A stretch of 64,000 nucleotides of DNA. It comes from a virus. Its lineage: Duplodnaviria; Heunggongvirae; Uroviricota; Caudoviricetes. Every line of letters begins with the position of its first letter. The first letter of the stretch is position 1. The DNA is taken from IMG/VR virus record IMGVR_UViG_3300047472_000248, positions 52,315 through 116,314 of that record. The stretch is one strand, 5' to 3'. The translations under genes and the position numbers were made by a program. The notes beneath the pieces are model-generated. The model searched no databases. It saw only the letters and a list, made by a program, of their open reading frames with translations, and had not been told where the DNA came from. Below, piece by piece: positions 40,758 to 61,840 of the stretch.

Positions 40758-40774
40758 AGTTCAACCATCGCAAC
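40758..40774 (+). promoter_or_regulatory. class-2 motif AGTTCAACCATCGCAAC
   Basis: 17 nt upstream of RBS GGGG and ATG 40792. Confidence 0.5.
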
Positions 40775-40791
40775 ACGTTAGGGGAAATCAC

Positions 40792-41418
40792 ATGGCGAGC
40801 AAGCCCAAGCGCATCGTCGTCACCATCAGCCAGGCGAAAGACATCGCCGAGCGCCTCGCGACGCGGCTGCTGGCTGAAGAGAGGGCGGACGCCCACGATC
40901 AGCTCGAAAGGGCAGGCGCCCGGGCGCTTCAGAGTCTCTGGCCGGTCGATACGCACGTGCTCGACTGGTTGCGCAGCAGTGAATCCGACAAGTTCGTTCA
41001 CAAGAATCGCAGTCGAACCCATGCCTGTGTCAGCGCGTCGTCTTCAGGCCCGCTCAAGGGTCGATGCTCTCTGAAAGCCAGCACTGCGCTGCTCCAGGAC
41101 TACGACCCGCTGCCGGACAACTATTCCGAGGTTTCCGACGCGGAATACCTCGCGCTCGAGGCGGCGCACAAGCGCGTCTATGACGCCGCCCAGGCGTTCC
41201 CCAAGCTGCGCGACGACCTGTTTCAGCAGATCCGCCTCGCCCGCTACCGGGACACGCTGATCGAGGCCTGGCCCGAGGCGACGGACATCATCGACTCGGT
41301 CATCAAGGCGCCGGCTGCGATCCCCGAGCCGGCCGCGATCGAGAAGCCGCTGGTGGCGATCGTCGGCAAATACCTGATGCGCCTGCCGGCGCCCGTGACC
41401 AACGTCTTCATGGCCTGA
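40792..41418 (+). CDS. hypothetical protein
   Basis: 208 aa; follows class-2 motif. Confidence 0.5.
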   Translation: MASKPKRIVVTISQAKDIAERLATRLLAEERADAHDQLERAGARALQSLWPVDTHVLDWLRSSESDKFVHKNRSRTHACVSASSSGPLKGRCSLKASTALLQDYDPLPDNYSEVSDAEYLALEAAHKRVYDAAQAFPKLRDDLFQQIRLARYRDTLIEAWPEATDIIDSVIKAPAAIPEPAAIEKPLVAIVGKYLMRLPAPVTNVFMA

Positions 41419-41477
41419 AAACAGCACCGCCGCGGCGCTGGTAAGACGCGGCATTCACGACGAAGGAGACGCAGACA

Positions 41478-41828
41478 ATGAAAATGAAGTTCCTCATGAC
41501 CGCGGCCGTTGCCGCCTTGATCGGCATGGCCGCACCCGCGGTCGAGGCCTATGCACCGCCCGTGGCAGCGCCGGCGACCGTCGGCTGGCTCACCGACGCG
41601 CAGACCGCGGCGCTGATCTACCTGGCCGACCAGAAGACGGCGGGCAACGACACGCTGATGTCCGACTTCCTGGTCGCGGCGGTTCCCACGCTGCTGTTCG
41701 CCGAGTTCCACGGGCTGATCGCCGGCGGCTACATCCGCTACACCGCGCCGTCGACGACCCCGGGCTATCCCGACCTCGTGACGATCACCGTCGCCGGCGT
41801 CGTCCGCTCGCACCAGACGAACCCCTGA
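41478..41828 (+). CDS. secreted/periplasmic small protein
   Basis: signal peptide MKMKFLMTAAVAALIGMAAPAVEA; RBS AAGGAGACG. Confidence 0.5.
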   Translation: MKMKFLMTAAVAALIGMAAPAVEAYAPPVAAPATVGWLTDAQTAALIYLADQKTAGNDTLMSDFLVAAVPTLLFAEFHGLIAGGYIRYTAPSTTPGYPDLVTITVAGVVRSHQTNP

Positions 41829-41834
41829 TCTGAC

Positions 41835-42032
41835 ATGGCTCGGTCGACCTACATCTACGTCATCGTGCTGGGCGAGGCGATGGCGCCGTTCACGGTGAAG
41901 CACGAGGCCAAAGCCTGGCTCGAGAAGAAGTGCCCACCGTCGTGGGTCGACCAGGCCGTGGTCAAGAAGTTCGCCGACAACGCGGGCGGCCTGCGCAAGG
42001 TCATGCCCGCACGGGAGTTCCTCGAGTCATGA
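41835..42032 (+). CDS. hypothetical protein
   Basis: 65 aa. Confidence 0.4.
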   Translation: MARSTYIYVIVLGEAMAPFTVKHEAKAWLEKKCPPSWVDQAVVKKFADNAGGLRKVMPAREFLES

Positions 42033-42256
42033 ACGACATCGTCGCCTACCACGACATGCACGAGACGGCCGTCGACGGCCTACCAGGCAAGCCGGGCATC
42101 TACAAGACGGCCGGCAGCCCCAGCGGCGTCTCGTTCTTTCGGCGCTTCGACGGGTCCGCCTGGTCGTCGGTATTCTGCTCGCCCGGCGAAGCCGTCGATG
42201 CAGAGTGCACCGTGTGCAACCCGCCCAAATTCTGGAAAGAGATCGAAGCATCATGA
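42029..42256 (+). CDS. hypothetical protein (paralog A)
   Basis: 75 aa; shares PG(I/V)YKT(A/S)G...FWRR(F/Y) with the next ORF. Confidence 0.4.
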   Translation: MNDIVAYHDMHETAVDGLPGKPGIYKTAGSPSGVSFFRRFDGSAWSSVFCSPGEAVDAECTVCNPPKFWKEIEAS

Positions 42257-42483
42257 GCCAAGAAACGACCCCCTGGTTCAACACCGTCCGTGACGGCCAA
42301 CCGCTCGAGCACCGTCCGGGCGTCTACAAAACGTCGGGGCGCAAGAACGCACGGAAGACCTTCTGGCGGCGCTACGAAGCGGGCTGGTGGTCGGTGCCGT
42401 GCGCGACGTTCGAATACGCCCAGACGGCGCCGATCTCCATCCACTACCTGCCGCCGCTGTGGTGGCAAGGGACGACGGGATGA
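42253..42483 (+). CDS. hypothetical protein (paralog B)
   Basis: 76 aa; tandem paralog of 42029-42256. Confidence 0.4.
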   Translation: MSQETTPWFNTVRDGQPLEHRPGVYKTSGRKNARKTFWRRYEAGWWSVPCATFEYAQTAPISIHYLPPLWWQGTTG

Positions 42484-43061
42484 CGATCATCGGCGGCGTC
42501 GACATCGAGACGACCGGCATCGACTGGGACAAGGGTCACCGGATCATCGAGTTCGCCATCTCCCTCTACGAGTTGGAGACCAAGCGCAAGCTCGGCAGCT
42601 TCGAGACGCGCGTAAACCCCGAGCGTCCGATTGACCCCAAGGCCCAGGCGGTGCACGGCATCAGCTTCGAGGACCTGGCCGACAAGCCACTGTGGCCCGA
42701 GGTCGCGCCCAAGGTCTCCAAGCTGCTGTCGAAGTGCAACTACCTCGTGATGCACAACGGCGAGGGCTTCGACGCGCCCTTCATCTTCCACGAGCTGTTC
42801 AGGGCGGGCGTGCCCATTCCCCCGATGTTCGTGGTGGACACGATGCTGCGCGGCCGCTGGGCGACGCCCGACGGCGCGGTGCCCAACCTGCAGGCGCTGA
42901 GCTTCGCCTGCGGCGTGCCCTACGACAAGGAAAAGGCCCACGGCGCCCTATACGACGTGGACGTGATGATGGACTGCTTCTTCAGCCAGTTCGACGCGGG
43001 CTTCTTCCCGCTGCCGACGGCCGAGCTGGCGGTTCGAGCAACCAGGAGTGCAACAGCATGA
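42480..43061 (+). CDS. DnaQ-like 3'-5' exonuclease (DEDDh)
   Basis: Exo I VDIETTG, Exo II HNGEGFDAPFI, Exo III HGALYDVDVM. Confidence 0.7.
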   Translation: MTIIGGVDIETTGIDWDKGHRIIEFAISLYELETKRKLGSFETRVNPERPIDPKAQAVHGISFEDLADKPLWPEVAPKVSKLLSKCNYLVMHNGEGFDAPFIFHELFRAGVPIPPMFVVDTMLRGRWATPDGAVPNLQALSFACGVPYDKEKAHGALYDVDVMMDCFFSQFDAGFFPLPTAELAVRATRSATA

Positions 43062-43447
43062 GCGAAGCATTGAACGTCGCGCTGAGCGCGAATGAGGTCA
43101 CCGGTCTGGTTCACAAGGCGATCACTGCCGCCGTCGTTGAGCGGATCGGCAGGGGTAGCGGCCTCTACAGCATTTCCAGGCAGATCGATCTTGCGATCGA
43201 GCACGGCATGAACGAGCGCCGGGGGCATATCGCCAGCGCCTTTGCTGCGGCGATCGACAAGTGCGTCACGTCGCCCGAGTTCGAGCAGGCGGTGCGCGAC
43301 GCGCTGCTGAAGCGGATCTCTGACAAGTTCGCCGGCGCGTTCGACGGGGTCATCGTCTCCGCTGCGCGCAAGGCGGCCGGCGACGCAGCGACGCATGCGC
43401 GTCTCGGCGGCCTGCTGTTCAAGCCCGACCTGGTGGTCAAGGCATGA
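43058..43447 (+). CDS. hypothetical protein
   Basis: 129 aa; ATGA overlap. Confidence 0.45.
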   Translation: MSEALNVALSANEVTGLVHKAITAAVVERIGRGSGLYSISRQIDLAIEHGMNERRGHIASAFAAAIDKCVTSPEFEQAVRDALLKRISDKFAGAFDGVIVSAARKAAGDAATHARLGGLLFKPDLVVKA

Positions 43448-43692
43448 CAGCCCAACCCATCCTGCCCGAGGGCTGGCGCTTCCGCACCGAGATTCAGCGC
43501 ACCGGCCTGTTCTCGGGCCATCGGACCATGCTCGTGCTCCAGCGCGAGGTGTCCGTGATGAGCGCCCTGGGTCCGTGGCCCAGTAGCGAGACTTATTGGG
43601 TCGATGCCAAGACTCCCGACATGCACGACTTCTTCGCCGCACTCGCAGCCGAGAAGTTCGCCCCAAAGCCGAGCGTCGAAACTCAAAGTTAA
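43444..43692 (+). CDS. hypothetical protein
   Basis: 82 aa. Confidence 0.4.
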   Translation: MTAQPILPEGWRFRTEIQRTGLFSGHRTMLVLQREVSVMSALGPWPSSETYWVDAKTPDMHDFFAALAAEKFAPKPSVETQS

Positions 43693-43725
43693 CCCATCGC
43701 GAGCGGTTCGCGATTGGGGACAAAG

Positions 43726-44061
43726 ATGAACATCGAACGCCTGAAATTCGCTGTCGCCCGGGGTGCCCGGGTGCAGATCAGAACGGGGGCCGAACCGGAG
43801 TGGCGTGACCACCCGTCGGGCTACCTGGGCTACCGGCACGCCGACTATCGCGTGCACCCGGACGACGCAGCGCTCGAATACGGGCCGCTATCTGCAGCGC
43901 TGAAACATCGGATCGTGTGGTCCGAGTGGACTGAAGGCGCCGCTGCCGCTTTGATATTCGCGCGGCACCTTGGATTCGAACAGGTGCACTACGCGAGCGA
44001 CGCCGAGCATCTTCACTACTGGGACTTCGTCGCCGAATACCTGGCGGACCAAGGACTATGA
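43726..44061 (+). CDS. hypothetical protein
   Basis: 111 aa (alternative start 43714). Confidence 0.4.
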   Translation: MNIERLKFAVARGARVQIRTGAEPEWRDHPSGYLGYRHADYRVHPDDAALEYGPLSAALKHRIVWSEWTEGAAAALIFARHLGFEQVHYASDAEHLHYWDFVAEYLADQGL

Positions 44062-44627
44062 GCACACCGATCTACTACTTCCCGAGCTTCCTGGCCACCG
44101 ACGCGACCTACGTGTTCGATCGGCTGTGGGCTGATCTGGACTGGGTCCGCGCCGAGGGCTCGAACCGTCGCGAATACTACGTTGCACGCGCGGGCATCGG
44201 TGCCTACACCTACGGGCGCGGCGCCGGCCGCCGCACCTACGAACCGCAGTTCGCGCACATCCTGATCAGGTCGGTCTGGAACATGGTCGAGACCATGACC
44301 GGCGTCAAGTTCGACGTGTGTTTCCTGAACGGCTACGAGAACGAGCGTGACGCCCTCGGCTGGCATGCCGACGACTCGCCCGAGATGGACGACGCGCGCC
44401 CGATCGCGATCGTCAGTCTGGGCGCCGAGCGGGAGATCATGTTCCGTCCGAAGGGCACCGACCAGGCGCGCCAGAACCTGCTGCGCGAGACGTTGATGCT
44501 GCAGAACGGCAGCCTGTGCCTGATGGCTTCCGGCATGCAGGACACGCACGAGCACAAGATTCCCAAGGCGGGCAGGGCGGTGGGCCCGCGCATCTCGTTC
44601 ACCTTTCGAGGCTACGTGAAGCAATGA
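44058..44627 (+). CDS. alkB: AlkB-like 2OG-Fe(II) dioxygenase (nucleic-acid demethylase)
   Basis: HxD as GWHADD, second His in HEHKIP, RISFTFR (RxSxTxR) 2OG-binding. Confidence 0.65.
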   Translation: MSTPIYYFPSFLATDATYVFDRLWADLDWVRAEGSNRREYYVARAGIGAYTYGRGAGRRTYEPQFAHILIRSVWNMVETMTGVKFDVCFLNGYENERDALGWHADDSPEMDDARPIAIVSLGAEREIMFRPKGTDQARQNLLRETLMLQNGSLCLMASGMQDTHEHKIPKAGRAVGPRISFTFRGYVKQ

Positions 44628-44821
44628 AGCGCTACGCACTCTTCGCAGGCGACCACTACTACCCGAGCGGAGGTTGGCACGACTTCGCAGGGTTCTTCGA
44701 CTCGCCCGGGCAAGCGAAGGCCCGTGCCTCCAAGCTGCCCCGAGAGCCATGGGAACGTGCGGACGACAAATGGTGGCACATCGTCGATCTTCAAACGGGC
44801 GAAATCATCGAGAAGGACTGA
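44624..44821 (+). CDS. hypothetical small protein
   Basis: 65 aa. Confidence 0.35.
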   Translation: MKRYALFAGDHYYPSGGWHDFAGFFDSPGQAKARASKLPREPWERADDKWWHIVDLQTGEIIEKD

Positions 44822-44822
44822 T

Positions 44823-46073
44823 ATGCAAGTGATCAAGGAAGAAGGCTCGCGCCCGATCAAGGCGTGGGTGGGCACGAAGAACAGCGGCAGCTTCAATTGG
44901 GAAGAGCCGTCGCTGGTGCCCGACATCGAAGACTCGGCGATGCAGCAGCTGAAGAAGCTGGCCAAGATGCCCTTCATCGCGCCCAACGGCGTCGCGGTGA
45001 TGCCCGACGTCCACGCCGGCATCGGCTCGACCGTGGGCAGCGTCATCGCGACCGACAAGGCCATCATCCCCGCGGCGGTTGGGGTCGACATCGGGTGCGG
45101 GATGAACGCGGTGCGCCTGTCGCTGAAGGCGAGCGACCTGCCCGACTCGCTGCTGGCCGTCCGCCACCAGATCGAGCGCGACGTGCCGATGGGCAATAGC
45201 TCACACACCCGCGCTGAGGATGTGGACGCGAACCGCCGGCGCCTGCCGATCGCCGACGACGTCAGGGGGCGTATGGCTGTCAGCTCTGCGGTCGGCGGCT
45301 GGTATCAGGCTGAGAGCAAGGCGGCGTCGCAGCTCGGCACGCTCGGCAGCGGCAACCACTTCATCGAGCTGTGCCTCGACGAGAATCAGAACGTCTGGAT
45401 CATGCTGCACTCGGGCTCGCGCGGCATCGGCAACATGATCGGCCGGCACTACATCGCCAAGGCCAAGCGGTCGATGGAGCAATTCTTCATCAAACTGCCC
45501 GACGGCGACCTGGCCTACTTCCCCGAGGACACCGACGACTTCGAGGACTACACCCGGGCCGTCCAGTGGGCGCAGGACTACGCGCTCGAGAACCGGAAGG
45601 TGATGATGACCGCGGTGATCGCGGCGCTGCGCCTGCACATCCCCGTGCCGTTCGAGGTCACGACCGAAGCGATCAACTGCCACCACAACTACGTCGAGAA
45701 AGAGAACCACTTCGGCCGCAACCTGTGGGTGACCCGCAAGGGTGCCATTCGGGCGCGTGAGGGCGACCTGGGCATCATCCCTGGCTCGATGGGACAGCAG
45801 AGCTACATCGTGCGTGGCAAGGGCAATCCCGAGTCCTACTGCAGCTGCTCGCACGGCGCCGGCCGCGTCATGTCGCGCACCGAGGCCAAGCGCCGCTTCA
45901 GCCTGCAGGACCTGGTGGCGCAGACCGAGGGCGTCGAATGCCGGAAGGACGCCGATGTGATCGACGAGATCCCGGGCGCTTACAAGCGGCTCGACGTCGT
46001 CATGGAGAACCAGAAGGACCTGGTCGAAGTCGTCCACACGCTCCGCGCGGTCCTTTGCTGCAAGGGCTCGTGA
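44823..46073 (+). CDS. rtcB: RtcB RNA 3'-phosphate/5'-OH ligase
   Basis: MPDVHAGIGSTVG, GVDIGCGM, GSGNHFIELC signature motifs. Confidence 0.8.
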   Translation: MQVIKEEGSRPIKAWVGTKNSGSFNWEEPSLVPDIEDSAMQQLKKLAKMPFIAPNGVAVMPDVHAGIGSTVGSVIATDKAIIPAAVGVDIGCGMNAVRLSLKASDLPDSLLAVRHQIERDVPMGNSSHTRAEDVDANRRRLPIADDVRGRMAVSSAVGGWYQAESKAASQLGTLGSGNHFIELCLDENQNVWIMLHSGSRGIGNMIGRHYIAKAKRSMEQFFIKLPDGDLAYFPEDTDDFEDYTRAVQWAQDYALENRKVMMTAVIAALRLHIPVPFEVTTEAINCHHNYVEKENHFGRNLWVTRKGAIRAREGDLGIIPGSMGQQSYIVRGKGNPESYCSCSHGAGRVMSRTEAKRRFSLQDLVAQTEGVECRKDADVIDEIPGAYKRLDVVMENQKDLVEVVHTLRAVLCCKGS

Positions 46074-46333
46074 TGAAGCCGATCTACGAACACTGGGGGA
46101 CGCCCGAGGGGCGCGAGGGCATTCAGCGCACCCTCGTAGAGGAAGATCCCGACGACGCGCTGTTCGCTGCTGTGGGTATCCGAGAGGTCGACGAGCGCGG
46201 CAACGTGCGCACGCTGACCGTCGAGGAGCTGAACGCCCGCGGCGTGCGTCGTAGCGTCGCGGCAAAGAACATCACCACGGGCGAGATGAAGCCAAGTCGC
46301 TCCGGGCCATTCTTCATCGTCAAGGGGTCGTGA
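46070..46333 (+). CDS. hypothetical protein
   Basis: 87 aa; overlapping stop/start. Confidence 0.4.
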   Translation: MMKPIYEHWGTPEGREGIQRTLVEEDPDDALFAAVGIREVDERGNVRTLTVEELNARGVRRSVAAKNITTGEMKPSRSGPFFIVKGS

Positions 46334-46644
46334 TGAAGTTCTCCGAGATTGTTCGGCGCTTCTGCGCGTTCAGAGAGTGGATGGAGCCGACGGATGACGG
46401 CACGGTCTACTGCCTACCGGAGGCTTCGCTCGAAGACCTGGACGACCAGATCGAAGTGTGCACGCTGTGGCAAGACGCCGCGCGCTACCGCCACCTGCGT
46501 GAGCACGGCCGCTGCGACTCGAAGCATGGCCACGGCCTGGTGCTTGGCGGTCGGGACAAGGCGAGCATGGCATTCCGCTACTGGGGCACGCCCGAAGAGC
46601 TGGACCGCTCGGTCGACGCCGACATGGCCGTCAGGAGCCAATAG
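46330..46644 (+). CDS. hypothetical protein
   Basis: 104 aa. Confidence 0.4.
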   Translation: MMKFSEIVRRFCAFREWMEPTDDGTVYCLPEASLEDLDDQIEVCTLWQDAARYRHLREHGRCDSKHGHGLVLGGRDKASMAFRYWGTPEELDRSVDADMAVRSQ

Positions 46645-47015
46645 TGAAAGATCCGATCATCTACCGCTCTTGGCCGCGTGACACGATCTCCGAAGCGATC
46701 AGTGAGTTCAACCACCACATGCACGATGGTGCCGGGATCGAGGAGATCGAGGCGGGCCTGCACGGGCTGGACTTTTTAACCCGCGCGTCAGAGCTTGGCA
46801 GCGACCTGGAGGCCCGTCTCGACGGAGCCGTCACAGAGGGGCGCATGCGGATCACGCTGATGCTTGAGCAACTGGACCAGCAGGAGAAGGTGCAGCGCGC
46901 GATCACGGCGCTGAAGCACCTACAGGTGACCATTCGGGGTATTCAGCGCCGCATCGAGTGTCCGCCCGATGCAGAGGAGTATCTCGCGCAGCGACGGATG
47001 GGAGCCGTCCTATGA
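46644..47015 (+). CDS. hypothetical protein
   Basis: 123 aa; GTG start. Confidence 0.4.
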   Translation: MKDPIIYRSWPRDTISEAISEFNHHMHDGAGIEEIEAGLHGLDFLTRASELGSDLEARLDGAVTEGRMRITLMLEQLDQQEKVQRAITALKHLQVTIRGIQRRIECPPDAEEYLAQRRMGAVL

Positions 47016-47170
47016 CGAGCCACAAAGAGATGCTGGCCTGGCACCGCGCCACCATTCGCAAGACGCTGAAGGAGCTGGCCAAGCTCTGCCCGGGCGCGTT
47101 CGATGCGGAGGGTAACCCGAAGCCCGCGACAGCCTACCCACGTCCAAAGCGCACAGTCAATACTGACTGA
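47012..47170 (+). CDS. hypothetical small protein
   Basis: 52 aa; ATGA overlap. Confidence 0.3.
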   Translation: MTSHKEMLAWHRATIRKTLKELAKLCPGAFDAEGNPKPATAYPRPKRTVNTD

Positions 47171-47200
47171 CATCGAAATCAGCCCAACGCAAACACCACC

Positions 47201-47557
47201 ATGGATGCAGTCAAAATCACCCCCGAAGTAGCCGCTGACTGGCGCTCCTGGGTCGCCGTCGCAAAGGCGGCGCGGGAAACGCCGGCAATGCAGCTGCACG
47301 TGTCGGTCCAGACGATCTCGGTCGTCAACGCGATCCTCTCGCAGCAGGACAAAATGCTGCACAACATGCAGGCGATCTGCCAGGTGGCCACCAAGCGCCA
47401 CAACGAGATTGCCGCGCAGTTCCAGGCACTTGCCGATGCCGTGCGTCGCATGCACGACGTAGAGGACACCTACGGGTGCGGCTTCTCCGAAGCTGCCGCT
47501 TGGAACGATGCCAACAACGAAGCCCGCCGCCTGGCCGGCATGAAGGGCCGCACATGA
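47201..47557 (+). CDS. hypothetical protein
   Basis: 118 aa. Confidence 0.45.
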   Translation: MDAVKITPEVAADWRSWVAVAKAARETPAMQLHVSVQTISVVNAILSQQDKMLHNMQAICQVATKRHNEIAAQFQALADAVRRMHDVEDTYGCGFSEAAAWNDANNEARRLAGMKGRT

Positions 47558-48204: not shown

Positions 48205-48338
48205 CACCGCAAGAAAAACGCCTTACGGCGTTCATGAACCGCATCTCGATGGTGACGCTGGCCGACGTGCTGCGCATCTTCGGCGCGGGGCTCGCGTTCG
48301 GGATCGCGCTCGGCTTGAAGTTTGGGGCGCACGCTTGA
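48201..48338 (+). CDS. tiny membrane protein (45 aa)
   Basis: RBS GGGAGG 8 nt upstream; ATGA overlap; hydrophobic C-terminus; below ORF-track cutoff. Confidence 0.3.
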   Translation: MTPQEKRLTAFMNRISMVTLADVLRIFGAGLAFGIALGLKFGAHA

Positions 48339-49313: not shown

Positions 49314-49324
49314 CCCCGGGCGCG

Positions 49325-53603: not shown

Positions 53604-53620
53604 AACGCAGGGCCCATGCC

Positions 53621-53983: not shown

Positions 53984-53986
53984 GTA

Positions 53987-54005: not shown

Positions 54006-54018
54006 GAAAGAGTCCATC

Positions 54019-54719: not shown

Positions 54720-55045
54720 ACAAGATTGCCGAGGCGCTGCGCTACGTCGCCGAGATCATCCCGCGCACCAAGCGCGAGGCTGTCGACAGGTCGCCTTACA
54801 TCTGCGACCTGGTGGACGATATCCGGTCTTCCTTCCATCCCGGGGACGCTGAGCATGCGCAGTGCATTCGGCGTGCGCACGACTTCCTGCACTTTCTCGG
54901 CATGGGCTCGGGGCTGTGCGAGTTCGTCGACAACGGCAGGGCCATGAGCGGCCTCAGTCCGCTCCCCTATGCCAAGGCGCAGAACCTGCGCATCACGTGG
55001 CTGCTGTTCGCGGCCGACCTCGCAGAGGAGTGGAAGGTCCGATGA
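54716..55045 (+). CDS. hypothetical protein (paralog 2)
   Basis: 109 aa; tandem duplicate of 54351-54719. Confidence 0.45.
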   Translation: MNKIAEALRYVAEIIPRTKREAVDRSPYICDLVDDIRSSFHPGDAEHAQCIRRAHDFLHFLGMGSGLCEFVDNGRAMSGLSPLPYAKAQNLRITWLLFAADLAEEWKVR

Positions 55046-55323
55046 GCACGATCACCCCTGTCTGTCCCGCGTGCGGCTCCCGCGAGTTCCGCAGTAACGA
55101 CCACGTGCTGTGCTCGACGGACATCGCCGAGATGACCCTGCAGCCCGACGGCACGTTTTCGATCGAATACTCCACGTGCGGCTCGGAGACCTACGACGAC
55201 ACGACCGAGCCGGTCAACCCCGAGAAGCCCTACGAGTGCGCCGAGTGCCAGCACCCGATGAGCGAGGTGGACCTGATCGCGTGCCATGCGGCCGAGGTCG
55301 AAGAAGAGGAAGAAGGCGAATGA
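55042..55323 (+). CDS. zinc-ribbon protein
   Basis: 93 aa; CPACGS...CSTD...CGSE...CAECQH; acidic tail. Confidence 0.45.
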   Translation: MSTITPVCPACGSREFRSNDHVLCSTDIAEMTLQPDGTFSIEYSTCGSETYDDTTEPVNPEKPYECAECQHPMSEVDLIACHAAEVEEEEEGE

Positions 55324-55496
55324 GCACCAATGCAATCACCCTACTCGATGATGGGCGCGACATGCCGCTTACAGACGCGCAGGCCCGGCGCTTGATGGAA
55401 ATGGGTCTGATCACTCCCTACGAAGATGATGACAGCTTCTTTCACCTTTACGGTATGGAGACGACCTGGGCCGATGTCGACGCGGCGCTCGCATGA
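55320..55496 (+). CDS. hypothetical small protein
   Basis: 58 aa. Confidence 0.3.
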   Translation: MSTNAITLLDDGRDMPLTDAQARRLMEMGLITPYEDDDSFFHLYGMETTWADVDAALA

Positions 55497-55596
55497 GCGA
55501 CCGCTACTGCCTCTTCTGCGGTCACGGCGGGCATCGCTCCCACGCATGCACTGGGCGCCCAATCACGCAGCCTGACTTCGCACGCCCGCTGCCGTC

Positions 55597-55615
55597 AGTC
55601 AGCACTGACTATACG
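55597..55615 (+). promoter_or_regulatory. AGTCAGCACTGACTATACG palindrome/-10-like unit
   Basis: TATACG variant. Confidence 0.45.
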
Positions 55616-55634
55616 TCATCGCAAACGACAGGGG

Positions 55635-55862
55635 ATGACGATGACGCTGATGCAGATGGTGACCGCGGTCTTTGCCTCACCGGCACCGAAGGACCATGAC
55701 GTGATCATGACCGAAGACGGCTGCTTCCGCGGCGTGGTCTACACCGGCACGCGCCGCGAGTGCGAGCGCTACCTGGCCACGCACGACTCGACCTCCTCGC
55801 GGCAGCTGGCCCTGTCGCAACGCAGCCTGGTCGACGAGCCCATGTCCTGCGACGCGCTGTAA
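55635..55862 (+). CDS. hypothetical protein
   Basis: 75 aa; RBS AGGGGATGACG. Confidence 0.4.
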   Translation: MTMTLMQMVTAVFASPAPKDHDVIMTEDGCFRGVVYTGTRRECERYLATHDSTSSRQLALSQRSLVDEPMSCDAL

Positions 55863-55880
55863 CGATTCACCTGTCCCAAC
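55863..55880 (+). promoter_or_regulatory. class-2 motif variant CGATTCACCTGTCCCAAC
   Basis: 15 nt before an ATG at ~55897. Confidence 0.4.
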
Positions 55881-56011
55881 CACCGAGCACCCGACATGAC
55901 AACGCTCGCTCTTCAACAGCTGCACATCCGCGTCAAGGTCTTGGGCGCGATCACCGAGTGTCTGCTCGCGCAGCGTCGCATGTGCTGGTTGCGCAACCAC
56001 CAGGAAGTCCA

Positions 56012-56299
56012 ATGAGCTACAGCCCCTACAACCGCCTCCCATCCGAGCACGAGATCGCCGAGCAGCGTCGTCGCACCAGCCGCATCGCCCGGGCGAAGTC
56101 CAAGCGGCAGATCAACGACGCGCGCCGCATGCCGTGCAAGGTCTTCAAGCCGCTCGCTGAAGACGGGGGCCTGGTCTGCACCGAAATGTGGGCGCAGACC
56201 CGCGAGGACCTGGAAGCGGCAATGGGCGCCGACACCAACCCGACGGTCGGCTATGCCGAAGCCGTCGAAGAAGCACAGCAGCAACTGGAGGCCGTATGA
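56012..56299 (+). CDS. hypothetical basic protein
   Basis: 95 aa. Confidence 0.45.
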   Translation: MSYSPYNRLPSEHEIAEQRRRTSRIARAKSKRQINDARRMPCKVFKPLAEDGGLVCTEMWAQTREDLEAAMGADTNPTVGYAEAVEEAQQQLEAV

Positions 56300-56658
56300 C
56301 CCCCAGACAGAAACTTCTCCTCGAAGCACTGTGCCTGCTGCAAGCAGGGCGCATGCTGATCGATCGACGTGCCAACTGGGGCACGGGTGATTACGCCACA
56401 GACGCCGATGGTGAAGTCTGCTCCACCCGTTCCCCCAGTGCGACCTGCTTCTGTTCTGTTGGCGCGATGAGCGCTGTGGTTTCACCCCATCGGCTCTATG
56501 GCTGGCTTGTTGCGCGCTCTCGCCTGGATAACAGGTTCAGGGCCCGCGGCTTCAAGGACACGATCGACGGCAACGATCGGTCCACCCATCGTGAAGTCAA
56601 GAAGGTCTGGGATGAAACCATCGAGGCGCTTGCTCTCGAACTGGAGTTTGCCAAGTGA
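56296..56658 (+). CDS. hypothetical protein
   Basis: 120 aa; ATGA overlap. Confidence 0.45.
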   Translation: MTPRQKLLLEALCLLQAGRMLIDRRANWGTGDYATDADGEVCSTRSPSATCFCSVGAMSAVVSPHRLYGWLVARSRLDNRFRARGFKDTIDGNDRSTHREVKKVWDETIEALALELEFAK

Positions 56659-56900
56659 CCTACTCGTGCTCCGACTTCGCCGACAGCATTCTCGAATCGC
56701 TGGACCACCACAAGCTGGTCAACCTCGACGACATGACCGAGGAAGATCGAGACGAGTTCAACGACTCGCCATCGGACCAGGCCGACGTGTGCCTCGAAGC
56801 GATCGATCGGCTCGTGCGCGAGCGCGACCTGCTCCGGGACGCACTGAAGGCGGCCGCCGCACCAGCGCTCGCACTCATCGACCAGGAGCTGGCCAAGTGA
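56655..56900 (+). CDS. hypothetical acidic protein
   Basis: 81 aa. Confidence 0.45.
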   Translation: MTYSCSDFADSILESLDHHKLVNLDDMTEEDRDEFNDSPSDQADVCLEAIDRLVRERDLLRDALKAAAAPALALIDQELAK

Positions 56901-56985
56901 CCCACATCCTCAACACCTGCCTCCTGGCCCTGGTCGCCACCATCGTGGTGGTCGCGCAGGCTCTCCTCTTCAACGACACGACACC

Positions 56986-57552
56986 ATGACGAACACCCAA
57001 GAGCTGATCGGCAAGCTGGTCGCCGAAGAAGCGCAGCGCGACGCAATCCACATCGCCGTGCTGCCCGTGATCGCGAACGAATACCTGACGCCCGGCACGC
57101 GCGTGGGCATCATGCAGGGCACCGTCAATCGCGTGTCGGCCGACGCCACGAAGATCGCCGAGGGTCGCACCATCGGCATCGTCGACCCCTTCTTGCGCAC
57201 CGCGCCGATTGACGGTGAGCGTGTGTGGCTGTTCCTCGACCCGAACACCATCACGTCGTTGCGGCACAACTGGACGCACCCGCTGATCGGCGAAGAAGTG
57301 CCGGCCGGCGCCGACATCTCGAAGGCGTATGCCGAGAAGGTGTTGCGCGGTTTCGCGGCGACCTCTGACGCCCGATACAGCGACGAGCCGTTCGACAAGC
57401 TGCTATCGATGCTAGGCGACATGAGCAAGAAGGGCTATGTCTACGGCAACGATGCATCCGGCGAGATCCCCGCCAACGTGTGGGATGCCTACGAAGCCTA
57501 CACGGGCGAAAGGGCGGGCGAGCGGCCCGAGTATTTCTCCTGCAGCTGCTGA
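56986..57552 (+). CDS. hypothetical protein
   Basis: 188 aa. Confidence 0.5.
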   Translation: MTNTQELIGKLVAEEAQRDAIHIAVLPVIANEYLTPGTRVGIMQGTVNRVSADATKIAEGRTIGIVDPFLRTAPIDGERVWLFLDPNTITSLRHNWTHPLIGEEVPAGADISKAYAEKVLRGFAATSDARYSDEPFDKLLSMLGDMSKKGYVYGNDASGEIPANVWDAYEAYTGERAGERPEYFSCSC

Positions 57553-57561
57553 TCGAGCGCT

Positions 57562-57804
57562 ATGACCCTGCCTGTCCCCACCATCGAGCCGCTCGGCAGA
57601 CTCGACAGACCCGGCAAGCTCCGCTGCTGGTCGACGCGCCCGGCTGCGTGGGGTGGTGTCCATGTGGTTGAGGGCACGGGCTACACCGAGGACGATGCCT
57701 ACGAGAAGTGGCTCAACGCGCTGTGTCGTGCAGAGGGCCTCAAGCGTTCCGACTACCACGGGCTGAAATACGTTCATCGCAACCCGACACCGACACCACG
57801 ATGA
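57562..57804 (+). CDS. hypothetical protein
   Basis: 80 aa. Confidence 0.4.
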   Translation: MTLPVPTIEPLGRLDRPGKLRCWSTRPAAWGGVHVVEGTGYTEDDAYEKWLNALCRAEGLKRSDYHGLKYVHRNPTPTPR

Positions 57805-58097
57805 AACGCCTCACGCCTCAGCAAGAGAGCGCCGCACACCGGGCGCTGTTTGCCCTCCACCGCATGCATTGGAAAGAGGGTGGTGAGAAGGCTCGCCCGC
57901 GCGTCGTGCGCAAGCTGAAGGCCCAGATCCTGACGCTGGTGGGTGCCGATGGGCCGTGCTACATGCTCGACCCCGACCTGTGGTCGCTCTACAGCGACTG
58001 CCACAAAGACCGCTACGGGTTCCGCCCGCGGGGCAGCTTGTCGGTCACATGGTGCGAACAGGAGCTGAAGGACTGGGCCGATCGGGGTGCGCTATGA
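57801..58097 (+). CDS. hypothetical protein
   Basis: 98 aa; ATGA overlap. Confidence 0.45.
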   Translation: MKRLTPQQESAAHRALFALHRMHWKEGGEKARPRVVRKLKAQILTLVGADGPCYMLDPDLWSLYSDCHKDRYGFRPRGSLSVTWCEQELKDWADRGAL

Positions 58098-58300
58098 AAC
58101 GTCCAACCTACTACGTGGTGCGCACCGGCCCGGACAGCTTCGACCTTCGGCAAGAGCGATTTCGCTCGGAGCTTGAGCAGGGCAAGGAACACCCGCACGA
58201 CCTGATGGCAACGAGCTTCACCGCTGCAGGCATGCGCGAGATCCTGGACAAGTGGTTCTCGGACACCGACGATTCGGCACTGCCTCCGGAGACACCATGA
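58094..58300 (+). CDS. hypothetical protein
   Basis: 68 aa. Confidence 0.4.
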   Translation: MKRPTYYVVRTGPDSFDLRQERFRSELEQGKEHPHDLMATSFTAAGMREILDKWFSDTDDSALPPETP

Positions 58301-58572
58301 GCAGGCTCACCTGGCCGGACAAGAGCCCGCGACATGGCTTCGCCTACGACCGCGTCCCAACGAAACGCGGCTCGGTCTATGGTGGCAGCCTCGACGCGCA
58401 CGACCACGTCGAATACGGCTCGATCCTTGACAGCGTGTTCGAGATGGCGAGCGATATCGAGGCAGCGAACAACGCCCCGGCGAGCGCCGCGATCGACCAG
58501 GTGCTGAAGGACGAGCGTTGGCGCATCCTTCCTCGGCACCGCAAACTGATCGTCGAAAGGCTCGCAGCATGA
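58297..58572 (+). CDS. hypothetical protein
   Basis: 91 aa. Confidence 0.4.
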   Translation: MSRLTWPDKSPRHGFAYDRVPTKRGSVYGGSLDAHDHVEYGSILDSVFEMASDIEAANNAPASAAIDQVLKDERWRILPRHRKLIVERLAA

Positions 58573-58877
58573 ACCACCAGGCAATGATCGAGCACGACAG
58601 TATGCGGCTCTATCGCAACCGCGACTACGTGCAGCACTTCCTGGACCTCCGCGTCTTCGACCTGCTCAATGACGCCACGGACGGGCTCCACCTGATGACC
58701 ACCGGGTGCCTCGACGCGCTCGAACACATGCCTACTGGGTCGATGTGCTCGAGCTCCTACGGGCCGTTCATCATGGACGTCGGGCGCGGCAGCACCCCCG
58801 AGCTTCGCAAGTGGCAGCAGGAGATGTCCAAGAAGCTGATCGCGCAGCTGCGGGCTGAAGAGGGCAGCAGGGCCTGA
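58569..58877 (+). CDS. hypothetical protein
   Basis: 102 aa. Confidence 0.4.
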   Translation: MNHQAMIEHDSMRLYRNRDYVQHFLDLRVFDLLNDATDGLHLMTTGCLDALEHMPTGSMCSSSYGPFIMDVGRGSTPELRKWQQEMSKKLIAQLRAEEGSRA

Positions 58878-59035
58878 TGATGCTCACGAAGGCTGATGTC
58901 AACGCACTGCGCTCCGAGATGAACGCGCAGTTTGGCGCGCACCTGCGTGCCATCCGGTCGCTCAGAAGGTGGATCGTCGGGACGACGATCGCGCTCGGCA
59001 TCGTGGGGTTCATGGTGTTCCTGCATGCACAATGA
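58877..59035 (+). CDS. small C-terminally membrane-anchored protein (52 aa)
   Basis: hydrophobic C-terminus IALGIVGFMVFL; below ORF-track cutoff. Confidence 0.3.
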   Translation: MMLTKADVNALRSEMNAQFGAHLRAIRSLRRWIVGTTIALGIVGFMVFLHAQ

Positions 59036-59038
59036 GCC

Positions 59039-59416
59039 ATGAGTGATGCCAACCGCCGCACCCGCCTTCTGGAGCTCTTCAACGGCCCTCGGTTCAACGG
59101 TGACCGATCGGCGCTGATCGCCGAGACCGGGCTCACCAAAGGCAGGGTCGCGCAGTTCTTCAATCCGGCACAGCCGTTCGGCGAGCGCGCAGCTGCCAAC
59201 CTGGCAGAGAGGCTGGGCCTGCCCGCGAGCTACTTCGATGCAGAGTCTGGCCCGTATCAGCGTGCGATCGAATGGATCGCCTCCAGCGACGTGCGGGTCG
59301 CGGTGCCGCTTGTTGCGCATGCGTTTCAGGTGCCTCACACGAAGGTCCTGCGAGACGTTCGTGAAGCCCGTGCGAGCCTGACGAAGCTCGCTGCTGCCGC
59401 ACCCGGGGCGCGATAG
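59039..59416 (+). CDS. Cro/CI-type HTH DNA-binding protein
   Basis: LLELFNG...ALIAETGLTKGRVAQFFN...LAERLGLPASYFD helix-turn-helix. Confidence 0.55.
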   Translation: MSDANRRTRLLELFNGPRFNGDRSALIAETGLTKGRVAQFFNPAQPFGERAAANLAERLGLPASYFDAESGPYQRAIEWIASSDVRVAVPLVAHAFQVPHTKVLRDVREARASLTKLAAAAPGAR

Positions 59417-59431
59417 TTCACTCATCGCAAC
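59413..59431 (+). promoter_or_regulatory. class-2 motif ATAGTTCACTCATCGCAAC
   Basis: 20 nt before ATG 59452. Confidence 0.45.
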
Positions 59432-59451
59432 CGACCACCAGAAAGCACAGC

Positions 59452-60000
59452 ATGCAGACCTTCTCCGACTTCGTCACTGCCTACAAGAAGCACGTCCACG
59501 GGTGGGATGACGCGATGTGCGATTGGGCCAATGTCCCGAGTGCCGAGAACAAGAGCGTCCACCTGACGAACTTCCAGCTCAACGCGATCGAGACGACCAT
59601 CCGTCAGCACGACCTTTGCGACTTCGGTGAGGGGCACCTTTCCGAGGTCTACCCGATCGTCCAGTCCGCCTTCGCAGCCCACCCGGGCGCTTCGCTCGAC
59701 TTCGACCTTGAGTCCAGCTATTCGCTAGCCTCACCGTGGTGCTATGAGTGCCACAGCGCCGACGAATACATGGTGCGCATCGCGCGCTGCCTGGTTGAAA
59801 CGGAAGACGGGTGCGTGGGCGATGCCGACTACAACGACGAGCAGCTCCAGCGCACGCGCACGATTCTCGGCGCCCTGGTCGCTGTCGGGGTGCCGATCAA
59901 CTACGTGAACAGTCAGGTTCCTGCGATCGCCCATTGCGAGGATGGGGACAACCCTGTGCAGCAAGCCTTCTTGCGCAAGCTGTTGGGCCTGACGCCCTGA
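59452..60000 (+). CDS. hypothetical protein
   Basis: 182 aa; last gene before a strong terminator. Confidence 0.5.
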   Translation: MQTFSDFVTAYKKHVHGWDDAMCDWANVPSAENKSVHLTNFQLNAIETTIRQHDLCDFGEGHLSEVYPIVQSAFAAHPGASLDFDLESSYSLASPWCYECHSADEYMVRIARCLVETEDGCVGDADYNDEQLQRTRTILGALVAVGVPINYVNSQVPAIAHCEDGDNPVQQAFLRKLLGLTP

Positions 60001-60004
60001 ATTC

Positions 60005-60052
60005 CGAAGGGCGGGAAGGGCGAATTCGGCCCTCCCGCTTTGCTTTTAGCGC
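60005..60052 (+). terminator. intrinsic terminator ending the long rightward operon
   Basis: GGGCGGGAAGGGCGAATTCGGCCCTCCCGC stem-loop followed by TTTGCTTTT, then AT-rich spacer. Confidence 0.65.
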
Positions 60053-60213
60053 CCATTCGCCTAGGCCCTTGTAAGTCCTTGATTTATAAGGCTTTTTAGA
60101 CACATTGGCTCGCACAATTGCAGTCACAGGCGCAATCTACCCGAGAAGCACCGAATTCACGCACGACCAGGCGCAGAAATCTGCACCAGCCGATCGGAAT
60201 CCGCACGCAAAGC

Positions 60214-60705
60214 CTACGACAAGGCTGCCCCGATCAACGCAAAGCACCTACCCCTACGACCGAAACCTCCGAGGGGCAGGCTGCCCGATTCAAAGCCCCG
60301 ACCCACCAGGCCCAAAACGTAGAAGAACAACCAGAAGACGAACACCAGCAGCAAGCGCGCCGAACCGTAGAAGAAGACCAGCAGCGCACCACGGCAAAGG
60401 CGAACCACCAGCACCGAAACACCCCGGGTCGGCAGAGCGCCAAACACGTAGACGAACAACCACCCGGCAGTCACCACCGACAACGCCGACACCCACACGG
60501 GCACAGACCAAGGCTCACCCTCCTCTGGGATAGAAGGAGAGGGTAGACACAGGTAGGTAGAGAAGGACCAGGACAGGGGGCGCAGCCCAGGCTCACACCA
60601 GGCGAACGCAGTGAGCCGTTGGCGTGCTTCCTTGTCGTCGTCCCAGTCCTCCAAGTCCTTACCGCTGGCGTCCACCTGGCAGGAGCCTCGGCTGCACTGG
60701 GCCAA
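60214..60705 (-). CDS. possible multi-TM membrane protein (TTG start), reverse-oriented
   Basis: + strand A/C-rich and G-poor, consistent with a minus-strand L/V/F/G-rich gene; four hydrophobic segments; weak start. Confidence 0.25.
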   Translation of the reverse strand: MAQCSRGSCQVDASGKDLEDWDDDKEARQRLTAFAWCEPGLRPLSWSFSTYLCLPSPSIPEEGEPWSVPVWVSALSVVTAGWLFVYVFGALPTRGVSVLVVRLCRGALLVFFYGSARLLLVFVFWLFFYVLGLVGRGFESGSLPLGGFGRRGRCFALIGAALS

Positions 60706-60961
60706 ACACCCTCATTGCCATAGGTAAAACACCCACGCGCAGGCTCAGGCAGCGTGGTCCTAGGCCCCTCGGAAACCGTGCCAAATTGCCCGATGGGACC
60801 CGTATCAGGGCCTTCGGCGTAGCTGTCGTTCCTTACAGCAAAACTACAATGTGACTTATACGTAAAGCGAATTCCCTGTAAGGGTAGTCCGTTCGGCTTA
60901 CACGTAGGCACCCTCGGCGAGTTCCCACGGGGGTCAGAAACGTCTTATAGAAGGCATTCTC

Positions 60962-61369
60962 TTGAAGAAACCGATCCCCCACTTCCGCCCGAAGCTCGCC
61001 TGGTCGAACACCTCCGCTGCGGCACTGCCTGAAGCCAACAGTGCCCCCACCCAGGACGACCAGGCTGAGGACCGCCGACACGGCGAGCGCCGGCAGCTGA
61101 CGACCCATCCGATCGCTGCACACCGGGAAGAAGCGCTCGCCCCCGTCGGCGTCCCCGCAGTGCACAGAGAGCGCAGCCGATTCAAGGTGCAGATTCGCAC
61201 CTGGGACGGCGAGCTCCAGACGATCATGGTCTCGTCTTCTCGGCAGTTCAGCCACCCGGACCGACTGCGCGCAGCCTTCAAGGCAGCGTTTGACATCCTC
61301 GAGCCGGGGTTCACGCTGGTGACCCTTGAGATGTTCGCGTCGCAGACCATCGAGGTCGACGTCGCCTAA
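60962..61369 (+). CDS. hypothetical protein (TTG start)
   Basis: 135 aa; non-repetitive C-terminal half. Confidence 0.3.
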   Translation: MKKPIPHFRPKLAWSNTSAAALPEANSAPTQDDQAEDRRHGERRQLTTHPIAAHREEALAPVGVPAVHRERSRFKVQIRTWDGELQTIMVSSSRQFSHPDRLRAAFKAAFDILEPGFTLVTLEMFASQTIEVDVA

Positions 61370-61401
61370 CCCCCGATAGTCCTGAAGGAGCAGCACACCC
61401 C

Positions 61402-61671
61402 ATGCCACACCGACTTGAGGCCATTCCCTCCCTGCTTGAAGGCACCGAGGTTCGGATCATCTACACCGACGCCGTGGGGCAGCCCCATGAAGGCATCTTC
61501 TCAACCACGCAGGTCTTCCCCGACCGTGGGCTGGACCTGGCCATGAAGATGCGCAGCGTGCTCGAGGACCTGATGCAGGACACCGGTGCCACCTTGTTGT
61601 CGGTGGGGCTGGTGTCGTCCGAGTTCTCGAGCGTGCCGGTCGAGTCGCACTTCGTGGGCCTCAACGGCTAG
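61402..61671 (+). CDS. hypothetical protein
   Basis: 89 aa; good RBS GAAGGAG. Confidence 0.4.
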   Translation: MPHRLEAIPSLLEGTEVRIIYTDAVGQPHEGIFSTTQVFPDRGLDLAMKMRSVLEDLMQDTGATLLSVGLVSSEFSSVPVESHFVGLNG

Positions 61672-61820
61672 GCACCAGGCTTCGAAGCTCCCGGCACGGC
61701 ATACGGCTCGGGGCCTCGATAGGCCCTTCAGGCTCAGGCCCACCCACCCCGGCTTGGCTCATCCCGACACATAGCCTAGGCTAGGGTAGTCCGGGCTGCC
61801 CGCTGCCTTCCCCTGGTTGC

Positions 61821-61840
61821 GACAGTCCCACCTGTCGAAC
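61821..61840 (+). promoter_or_regulatory. class-2 motif variant GACAGTCCCACCTGTCGAAC
   Basis: palindromic CGACAG...CTGTCG arms; 29 nt before ATG 61868. Confidence 0.4.

Follow-up and report, generated by a model that had tools for sequence, protein, structure and literature searches.

The window and its lineage

We analysed a 64 kb stretch of viral DNA (positions 52,315 to 116,314 of IMG/VR record IMGVR_UViG_3300047472_000248; hereafter the window) for a recurrent element, termed class 2, that stands before small genes, and for a small sigma-like protein, g23, that may direct transcription from it. A preliminary description had pointed out eight sites with the motif TTCA(A/C)C...TCGCAAC between 40758 and 61821, all of which are present. 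The window has ~64% GC and ~110 genes (called on third-codon-position GC, GC3), nearly all on the plus strand, with a short minus-strand block at 7.0–11.0 kb; the minus-strand genes include TrfA, ParA and a cI-like helix-turn-helix (HTH) regulator. Replication and cob genes (primase, ligase, CobT, a CobS-like AAA+ protein and the small sigma-like protein) are accompanied by genes of repair and metabolism (SSB, exonuclease, a UvsX/RecA-like recombinase, SbcCD-like proteins, class II ribonucleotide reductase (RNR), thymidylate synthase and RtcB), and DnaE (16560–19961) is fused C-terminally to a uracil-DNA-glycosylase-like (UDG-like) domain. No close DNA relative was found among deposited phages, where the megablast match was to RtcB only; DnaE identity (36–42%) and synteny place the window with the ~110 kb siphoviruses and phage-plasmids related to SSU5, RHEph10 and nickie. 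Because TrfA, ParA and the HTH regulator form a plasmid-maintenance block (7037–10977, minus strand), the parent genome is, judged by gene content, a phage-plasmid of this lineage of roughly 116 kb; RHEph10 carries repC at the equivalent position. SSU5/RHEph10-like phage-plasmids are widespread, some of them carrying resistance genes (PMC7969092, PMC9600943).

A recurrent element upstream of small genes

Searching the window with TTCAMC-N2-3-TCGCAAC returned 5 exact matches, all on the plus strand, against 0.01 expected from shuffles, and 16 matches against 2.8 expected when up to 3 mismatches were allowed (plain k-mer counting was dominated by codon bias). A position weight matrix of 44 aligned positions (−36 to +8, cut-off 12 bits) recovered exactly ten sites at or above 12 bits, all on the plus strand and none on the minus strand, and its maximum in ten random 64 kb sequences never exceeded 8 bits. 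In leave-one-out scoring seven of these sites kept 24–51 bits, the others falling to 13.5 (43687), 12.0 (61824) and 8.3 (55864). A relaxed core, nAnnnT-TC-N4-5-RTYGCA, had nine matches on the plus strand and 0 on the minus strand (0.3 expected per strand) and added two sites, 11500 and 13828, which lie 37 nt upstream of the cobT ATG and 50 nt upstream of the cobS ATG, respectively, bringing the class 2 family to ~12 members. These members, together with one hybrid site read directly from the sequence, are listed below; scores are leave-one-out values unless stated otherwise.

1788..1830, plus strand: class 2 site before g3 (ATG 1883), within the 3′ end of g2; −10 CACAGT at 1811–1816, predicted +1 A at 1823, then TCGCAAC; 32.8 bits
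11500..11519, plus strand: variant before cobT (ATG 11537), directly 3′ of a terminator-like hairpin (GCCCCGAATCCGAGGGGC then AATTTTT); TAGAGT-TCGTTC-ATTGCAGC, no GCCCaCTGCC block; score 9.8 bits (not leave-one-out)
13828..13848, plus strand: variant before cobS (ATG 13878), ~20 nt downstream of a class 1 palindrome and TATGAT (13790–13810); CATAGT-TCGTTCT-GTCGCATT
40732..40774, plus strand: class 2 site before g55 (ATG 40792); −10 CAAAGT, predicted +1 A at 40767; 30.5 bits
43661..43703, plus strand: degenerate class 2 site before g62 (ATG 43726); CAAAGT-TAACCC-ATCGCGAG; 13.5 bits
49301..49343, plus strand: class 2 site before g75 (ATG 49359), its −35 block spanned by a stable hairpin; GCCCACTGCC, 13 nt, GACAGT-TCACCT-GTCGCAAC; 51.2 bits
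49756..49799, plus strand: class 2 site before g76 (ATG 49844), fully intergenic, 7-nt discriminator; CACAGT-TCACCCT-GTCGCAAC; 47.5 bits
52508..52550, plus strand: class 2 site before g81 (ATG 52567), fully intergenic; CCCCACTGCC, 13 nt, GACAGT-TCAACC-ATCGCAAC; 43.5 bits
53561..53603, plus strand: class 2 site before g84 (ATG 53621), fully intergenic; CAAGAT-TCAACC-ATCGCAAC; 41.1 bits
55585..55626, plus strand: hybrid site before g89; CCCGCTGCC, gtc, class 1 palindrome AGTCAGCACTGACT, ATACGTC, ATCGCAAAC
55838..55880, plus strand: degenerate class 2 site before g90 (ATG 55896), with the g89 stop at the −10; AACGAT-TCACCT-GTCCCAAC; 8.3 bits, marginal
59389..59431, plus strand: class 2 site before g102 (ATG 59452), with the g101 stop inside the −10 hexamer; GATAGT-TCACTC-ATCGCAAC; 24.5 bits
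61798..61841, plus strand: degenerate class 2 site before g107 (ATG 61868); GACAGT-CCCACCT-GTCGAAC; 12.0 bits

Given the mismatch-tolerant copies at 1814 and 43687 and the relaxed-core sites at 11500 and 13828, the family is not confined to 40–62 kb, the region to which the preliminary description had restricted it; the copy at 1814 is a strong one, and those at 11500 and 13828 are variants. Its placement before a ribosome-binding site (RBS) and ATG, in contrast, held throughout: all 12 class 2 sites lie on the plus strand with the predicted +1 23–60 nt upstream of a plus-strand ATG with an RBS, while only 11% of the window falls within 70 nt upstream of a plus-strand start. At 5/10 sites part of the element lies within the 3′ end of the ORF before it, the other sites being fully intergenic, and stop codons fall at or inside the −10 hexamer at 59415 and 55864. 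Since the elements straddle ORF ends and stop codons or are fully intergenic, their conservation is not due to coding, an explanation that had been named beforehand as one that would undo the promoter proposal; the genes that flank the sites are not paralogues, so duplication of paralogous genes was likewise rejected as the source of the repeats. Two variants head cobT and cobS, the operon to which the sigma gene belongs; the other class 2 sites would each open a short transcription unit made up of small, functionally unassigned genes. Scanning viral contigs with AGTTCAMCNNTCGCAAC gave single-copy chance matches only.

Roughly 60 bp of near-identical sequence beside unrelated small ORFs in a gene-dense region, with a stem-loop at some copies, recalls the promoter-early stem-loop (PeSL) cassettes of T4-type phages (PMC2839356, PMC4122927). 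These too are repeated composite intergenic modules before small novel ORFs in a plastic region, and some copies in the window combine a stem-loop with a promoter-like element. Class 2 sites might then be recombination cassettes that shuffle small ORFs, with promoter activity secondary. That account is compatible with promoter function and, as the primary explanation, very unlikely: the stem-loop occurs in only ~4/10 copies, and members also occupy conserved orthologous positions before the core genes cobT and cobS. In PeSLs, furthermore, the promoters are early ones of the host sigma-70 type and a terminator stem-loop is regularly present, whereas the −10 and −35 are non-canonical here and the stem-loop is inconsistent.

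Layout and register of the class 2 element

When aligned on AGTTCA, the sites share a conserved stretch of ~45–60 bp in fixed register. The element had been described as a compact one of 17–23 bp; its conserved blocks in fact reach ~−35 (GCCCaCTGCC) and, weakly, ~−50. Numbered from the predicted transcription start site (TSS), its parts are as follows.

About −51..−44: weak upstream block, GCAGCCGA
−35..−26: −35 block, GCCCaCTGCC, with GCCCaC 17 nt upstream of the hexamer
Spacer: 13 nt, GC-rich
−12..−7: −10 hexamer, (C/G)A(C/A)AGT, with A-11 and T-7 invariant (10/10 sites)
Discriminator: 6–7 nt, TCAaCC
+1: predicted start at a purine, A in ..CA.. variants and G in ..TG.. variants
+2..+8: start-region block, TCGCAAC
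Leader: 23–60 nt (predicted) and AC-rich, then RBS and ATG

As read from the alignment, this is the geometry of a sigma-70-family promoter in which the −35 is unusual, the −10 degenerate and the start region conserved. Three independent observations point to a −10 at cAcAGT and a start just before TCGCAAC. At the hybrid site (55597) a class 1 palindrome and −10 region sit between the class 2 flanks CCCGCTGCC and ATCGCAAAC, which fixes the register; upstream of the orthologues of g75 and g76 in relative L196 stands TATAGT or TACTAT followed, after 7 nt, by GTTGCA; and the relatives' cobT sites agree, orthologous sites keeping RTCGCAAC 6–7 nt after the −10 hexamer (TATGAT, TATTAT, TAGAGT). Other registers were rejected. 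With TTCAAC as the −35, nothing conserved would lie 17 nt downstream of it; with TCGCAAC as the −10, the RBS would fall at the extreme 5′ end of the transcript; and both registers are contradicted by the TATAAT-like hexamer upstream in orthologous sites. In a by-eye comparison, none of the consensus sequences of sigma-54, sigma-32, sigma-28 or sigma-E fitted.

The preliminary description had likened the sites to T7-like or T4 late promoters rather than to −35/−10 pairs. The element does have −35/−10 spacing, together with nAnnnT and a purine 6–7 nt downstream, and the window has no gene for a phage RNA polymerase. The T4 late type (TATAAATA at −10, no −35, a gp55/gp33-type factor) was discarded, since its consensus is absent, a block is present at the −35 position, and g23 has a sigma-4 domain. 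The contiguous conservation from −12 to +8 (~20 bp), which takes in the initially transcribed bases as T7-type promoters do, would suit a phage-encoded non-sigma polymerase, whether T7-like single-subunit or N4-like. We consider this extremely unlikely: such a gene is missing from the 64 kb window (the ORFs longer than 600 aa are CobT, DnaE, SbcC-like and RNR), for which reason the T7-like single-subunit promoter was rejected; none is known for SSU5, RHEph10 or nickie in the regions examined; and a sigma-dependent mechanism accounts better for nAnnnT, for the −35 block at sigma-type spacing and for the conserved sigma gene.

A GC-rich hairpin, said to precede the motif often, accompanies ~4/10 sites (significant at 2, moderate at 2) and is missing elsewhere. 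RNAalifold found 0 conserved pairs across the class 2 sites and an Rfam search with the element 0 matches; with so few sites and an empty consensus fold, the hairpin was rejected as a defining part. These results also bear on a role at the RNA level, in which RTCGCAAC and the AC-rich tract would form a shared 5′ leader or processing site controlling translation, stability or cleavage, in the manner of an operator for T4 RegA, a translational repressor. The block best conserved in distant relatives is indeed the would-be transcribed +1..+8, it lies near the RBS at most sites (leaders of 23–30 nt), and the cobS copy sits downstream of a class 1 promoter, i.e., within the leader of that transcript. 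Yet conservation in fixed register extends 35–50 nt upstream of the block and includes nAnnnT, copies stand directly after terminators, where a new promoter is needed (11500 in the window; L208, L211, L214 and L156 among relatives), the ATG lies anywhere between 23 and 60 nt away, and neither conserved pairs nor an Rfam family emerged. We regard this role as unlikely.

Class 2-like sites in related phages

Sites of the same layout were read at orthologous positions in related viral loci (L numbers), and the full-length matrix matched two further ones.

L208, before cobT, after a terminator: TATGAT-TCAGAC-ATCGCAAC
L210, before cobT: TATTAT-TCATAG-GTCGCAAC
L211, before cobT, after a terminator: TATGAT-CAAACC-ATCGAAC
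L213, before cobT: TAGAGT-TCGATC-ATTGAT
L214, before cobT, after a terminator: TACTAT-TAAGTCT-GTAGCAAC
L213, before cobS: GAAGAT-TCAACC-ATCGCAAC; at other loci CACAAT-TC....-ATCGG
L156:20415, full-length matrix match of 17.5 bits, after a terminator: CTACTGCC, 13 nt, TAAAGT-TCGTTCT-GTCGCAAC
L205:11919, full-length matrix match of 13.3 bits: GCCCAAAGCC, 13 nt, GACACT-GTTCCC-ATCGCAAC, then RBS and ATG

Three of the five relatives' cobT elements thus stand directly 3′ of an intrinsic terminator. The orthologous sites before cobT, cobS, g75 and g76, together with the full-length matches, indicate that the class 2 family is lineage-wide. A very relaxed pattern, nAnnnT-N6-7-RTYGCARC, was not globally enriched in relatives (20 plus-strand against 14 minus-strand matches), so there positional orthology alone is informative. 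By this comparison the hexamer varies across the lineage from TATAAT-like to the degenerate cAcAGT of the phage studied here, which has multiplied the degenerate version, with a −35 block of its own, before small genes.

Two further observations concern relatives. In L129 (IMGVR_UViG_3300047323_000428), AACAGTCAAAAnTGACT occurs in nearly every intergenic gap (8 sites); the left half of this sequence (ACAGTCAA) is similar to the class 2 core (ACAGTTCAA), and the copy at 18196 runs into CATTCGCAAC. Operator half-sites and class 2 cores may accordingly share an evolutionary link. Upstream of cobS in L219–L226, which form a distant sigma subgroup, there is a different palindrome, TAAGTAA-N4-TTACTTA, followed by TAGCGCAACGCGAAAGCGC; the operator sequence differs between lineages, but a CGCAAC block is still found close to where the cobS leader begins.

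The sigma-like protein g23 and its neighbour g24

The preliminary description had seen sigma-70 regions in an ORF at 15083–15742. Profile, homologues and structural model uphold the family assignment; the start is better placed at 15089, giving the 217 aa protein on record.

15089..15742, plus strand: g23, sigma-70-family protein of 217 aa; sigma-2 at ~residues 15–93, an acidic linker, and sigma-4 with an HTH at ~127–194
15739..16317, plus strand: g24, overlapping the g23 stop codon and translationally coupled to it; phrog_3616 (unknown function)

The profile search proposed as a check came out in part: g23 passes Pfam Sigma70_r2 narrowly (24.1 bits against a cutoff of 24) and has no Pfam region 4 match. 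An exhaustive HMMER search yielded homologues in 108 cluster representatives (closest 42% identity), IMGVR_UViG_3300042896_000947 and 3300037467_001949 being among the relatives whose sigmas come nearest, and 43/50 aligned homologues match Sigma70_r2, the best at 1.9e-11. Compared with solved structures, the g23 family profile matched SigA (4e-15) and RpoS (4e-12), the RpoS alignment running as one stretch from region 2 to region 4 (profile 20–197 on chain residues 106–321). The AlphaFold model (pLDDT 85.6) has two helical domains joined by the acidic linker, with a C-terminal helical bundle at 127–194; it matches sigma factors only, and its sigma-2 superposes on SigE, RpoS and SigA at 2.2–2.7 A. 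The region 4.2 HTH aligns (LrelakelGlegeelrqV vs LEEVGQEIGLTRERVRQI) and is weak as a separate domain. By profile and model, then, g23 is a sigma-70-family protein with sigma-2 and sigma-4. Its region 2.3/2.4 (KFATWCQFVGLQHFNRAI) retains part of the FSTYATWWIRQ aromatic/polar pattern, whereas the region 4.2 recognition helix reads DPKTVSGVCRE against TRERVRQIQVE in RpoS; given this difference, recognition of TTGACA by g23 would not be expected.

A g23 homologue follows cobS directly in 28/29 related viral loci and also in RHEph10, whose record already annotates it as "putative sigma factor"; phage nickie has no detectable homologue. Searches of other scope returned little: tblastn against phages and plasmids gave no match, a word-indexed protein search returned g23 itself and nothing else, and the sole match among genome contigs was an Ancylobacter contig (CobS identity 46%). 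In the window g23 is the only sigma-like or polymerase-like gene found. The coupled g24 is kept right after the sigma gene in at least 14 relatives (including L206–L218) and has an invariant N-terminal four-cysteine motif, Cx13Cx2Cx5C, in fuller form C-[YFH]-G-x11-12-C-x2-C-x5-C. More speculatively, g24 may be a zinc-binding anti-sigma protein or sigma co-factor.

Class 1 sites and a candidate repressor

Class 2 sites are interleaved, as previously described, with a second class built on a palindrome and TATAAT (class 1). The palindrome AGTCAG-NN-CTGACT occurs in 24 copies in the window (e.g., 11062, 11144, 11239, 13790, 19969, 21013, 39037 and 53987), three of them in the 559-bp interval between cobT and a divergent regulatory gene.

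10468..10977, minus strand: g20, cI-like HTH regulator, divergent from cobT

Any −10 in the vicinity of a class 1 palindrome is a near-perfect TATAAT, unaccompanied by a conserved −35. The offset of the palindrome from TATAAT varies from −23 to +12, so it behaves as an operator rather than as a sigma element. Class 1 sites look like −10-driven promoters overlapped by a repressor operator, and g20 is probably the repressor that acts on them, a candidacy drawn from its position and fold class. In relatives' contigs GTCA-N4-TGAC is enriched 15–30-fold. Class 2 sites lack an operator-like palindrome.

Phage P1 offers a parallel, with many C1 repressor operators scattered over its genome and Lpa-dependent late promoters that consist of a −10 plus a palindrome near −22. 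Both are plasmid prophages (TrfA and ParA here), with a genome-wide, multi-copy operator-like palindrome over −10-only promoters and a second tier. Unlike that of P1, the second tier here has no palindrome, its candidate specificity factor is a sigma factor and not an activator, and there is no sequence relationship. Of the two-tier transcription programme proposed earlier, the two distinct promoter-like classes are borne out, and the programme itself stands as a reasonable model.

A possible repressor-gated sigma circuit

Taken together, the layout, strand bias and placement make it likely that class 2 sites are promoters. We tentatively propose, at a shade below an even chance, that host core polymerase reads them in combination with g23. 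No other sigma-like gene was found in the window, the presence of both sigma-2 and sigma-4 in g23 suits a bipartite element, the −35 block and the 4.2 helix of g23 both depart from the canonical form, and family members precede the cobT/cobS operon that includes g23, here and in several relatives. Host core RNA polymerase would carry g23, with sigma-2 reading nAnnnT and the divergent sigma-4 helix the non-TTGACA −35 block. Class 1 promoters would be host-readable and gated by the prophage repressor g20; g23 would be made from them and from its own family-type promoters, giving positive feedback, and would then turn on the class 2 units. The order repressor off, g23 made, class 2 on follows from the position of g23 downstream of the repressor-gated class 1 promoters. 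Autoregulation of this kind is common among alternative sigmas and established for extracytoplasmic function (ECF) sigmas. Where transcription starts, whether it depends on g23 and what the repressor does are inferred from sequence, and we judge the overall reading (~12 sigma-70-family-type promoters, g23 as their reader and a repressor-gated two-class logic) to be evenly balanced.

A somewhat doubtful alternative is that class 2 sites serve host RNA polymerase with a host sigma (sigma-70, perhaps with an activator at GCCCaCTGCC), g23 being reserved for late genes outside the window. The hexamer retains A-11 and T-7, the two positions most critical for sigma-70, the orthologous hexamers of relatives are near-consensus (TATGAT, TATTAT, TAGAGT), and the late gene region does lie outside the window; since class 2 sites are without the repressor palindrome, they could be weak constitutive promoters for accessory genes of a plasmid prophage. 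On the other hand, cAcAGT agrees with TATAAT at only ~3/6 positions, the −35 is unlike TTGACA, and there is no TG extension. A generic host sigma-70 scan (TTGACA, 16–18 nt, TATAAT, at least 9/12 matches) of 42001–62000 found 0 sites against 2.1 expected, no activator candidate appeared among the window's proteins by Pfam or PHROGs, and a conserved sigma with a non-canonical 4.2 helix is encoded.

Several points weigh against g23 as the reader or against the promoter assignment itself. The link between class 2 sites and g23 is, as drawn from these comparisons, circumstantial. With the hexamers of relatives and of 11500 near TATAAT, host sigma-70 could read some members, and the degenerate cAcAGT versions might work as weak promoters for the host enzyme or with the help of an activator. 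Neither the cobT and cobS variants nor most of the relatives' sites have the −35 block, and three of the ten matrix sites are only marginally above noise in leave-one-out scoring. Across relatives, conservation is strongest at +1..+8, a stretch not usually read by sigma factors; this hints at an additional or different reader or at a function of the RNA 5′ end. Finally, phage sigmas usually drive late structural genes; these lie outside the window (~52 kb of the contig), and g23 may have a different regulon.

A broader proposal, which we hold to be fairly improbable, is that g23 and its ~100 cluster representatives form an uncharacterised sigma clade which, with g24, makes up a repressor-gated, self-amplifying switch expanded in this phage to about ten ORFan accessory cassettes, its promoters best conserved at the discriminator and the first eight transcribed bases (TC..-RTCGCAAC). 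Such promoters would mean that sequence 3′ of the −10 is recognised by this sigma or its holoenzyme, or else that the nascent 5′ end is the target of a second factor. A literature search on sigma factors or promoters of the SSU5/RHEph10/nickie lineage found nothing; in the searchable literature there appears to be no earlier description of the promoter family, its register, the pairing of sigma with g24 or the operator class, while the RHEph10 sigma was already known as a putative annotation. Confirmation would provide the lineage with a regulatory map (repressor operator class, sigma with a candidate partner, cognate promoter class). It would also add a new orthogonal sigma/promoter pair suited to high-GC hosts, as well as promoters on which conservation of the initially transcribed region can be studied. 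As phage sigma cascades are textbook knowledge, no principle would be overturned.

Comparison with known phage and ECF sigma systems

The nearest functional parallels are the promoters of phiEco32 gp36, a single element tAATGTAtA, and of Salmonella phage 7-11 gp47, a bipartite GTAAtg-(16)-aCTA (PMC8948821, PMC12276001). As in the window, a small phage-encoded sigma-70-family protein goes with a second promoter class, unlike TTGACA/TATAAT, that stands before several operons beside host-type promoters; the resemblance is closest to 7-11, as there too a region 4 in the sigma goes with a bipartite promoter whose spacer measures ~16–17 bp. The sigmas, however, have no detectable sequence relationship, and the consensus here is GCCCaCTGCC, 13 nt, cAcAGT. 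The targets seen here are small accessory genes and the replication operon rather than late structural genes, phiEco32 and 7-11 are lytic podoviruses whereas this is a temperate phage-plasmid, and their promoters are without the conserved +1..+8 block of the predicted promoters here.

ECF (group 4) sigmas with an anti-sigma share with g23 the sigma-2/sigma-4 composition, a length of ~200 aa, a promoter of the apparently cognate family before their own operon and a coupled gene, the Cys-rich g24 in this case. They differ in that the best profile matches of g23 are group 1/2 sigmas (SigA, RpoS), in that the promoter here has an nAnnnT −10 in place of the AAC-type −35 and CGT-type −10, and in that Cx13Cx2Cx5C of g24 is not the HxxxCxxC zinc anti-sigma motif. 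An ECF sigma and promoter class was therefore rejected: the promoter blocks differ and the top solved-structure matches are SigA and RpoS, the two-domain size being ECF-like.

Other features of the window

CobT (11537–13762) contains an acidic, E/P-rich low-complexity insert of ~200 aa. Towards the right-hand end, at 60001–63565, GC drops to 0.62 and there are long gaps without GC3-supported genes and AT-rich stretches; a possible minus-strand ORF lies at 60214–60705, a terminator-like hairpin at 60067–60091, and a 207-aa ORF at 62632–63255, not called by GC3 criteria, may be foreign DNA. The window closes (63975–64000) with ~17 consecutive G and then CCCC, which probably arose as an artefact of sequencing or assembly and marks a contig end.

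Iteron-like direct repeats adjoin trfA at 8843–9168 (CCATAGTCGAAGyGTGACGCCC at 34-bp spacing and GTCACCsTTGCGCCGT at 31-bp spacing) and are probably the plasmid origin. In the interval between parA and g20 (10170–10410), four copies of a ~31-nt repeat (CCATAGGCTAGGCTATCGCAGGCTATGC) are spaced by multiples of 35 bp and may form a parS/centromere array. The words CTAGGCTA/CATAGCC reappear in two far intergenic gaps, at ~50690 and ~61775.

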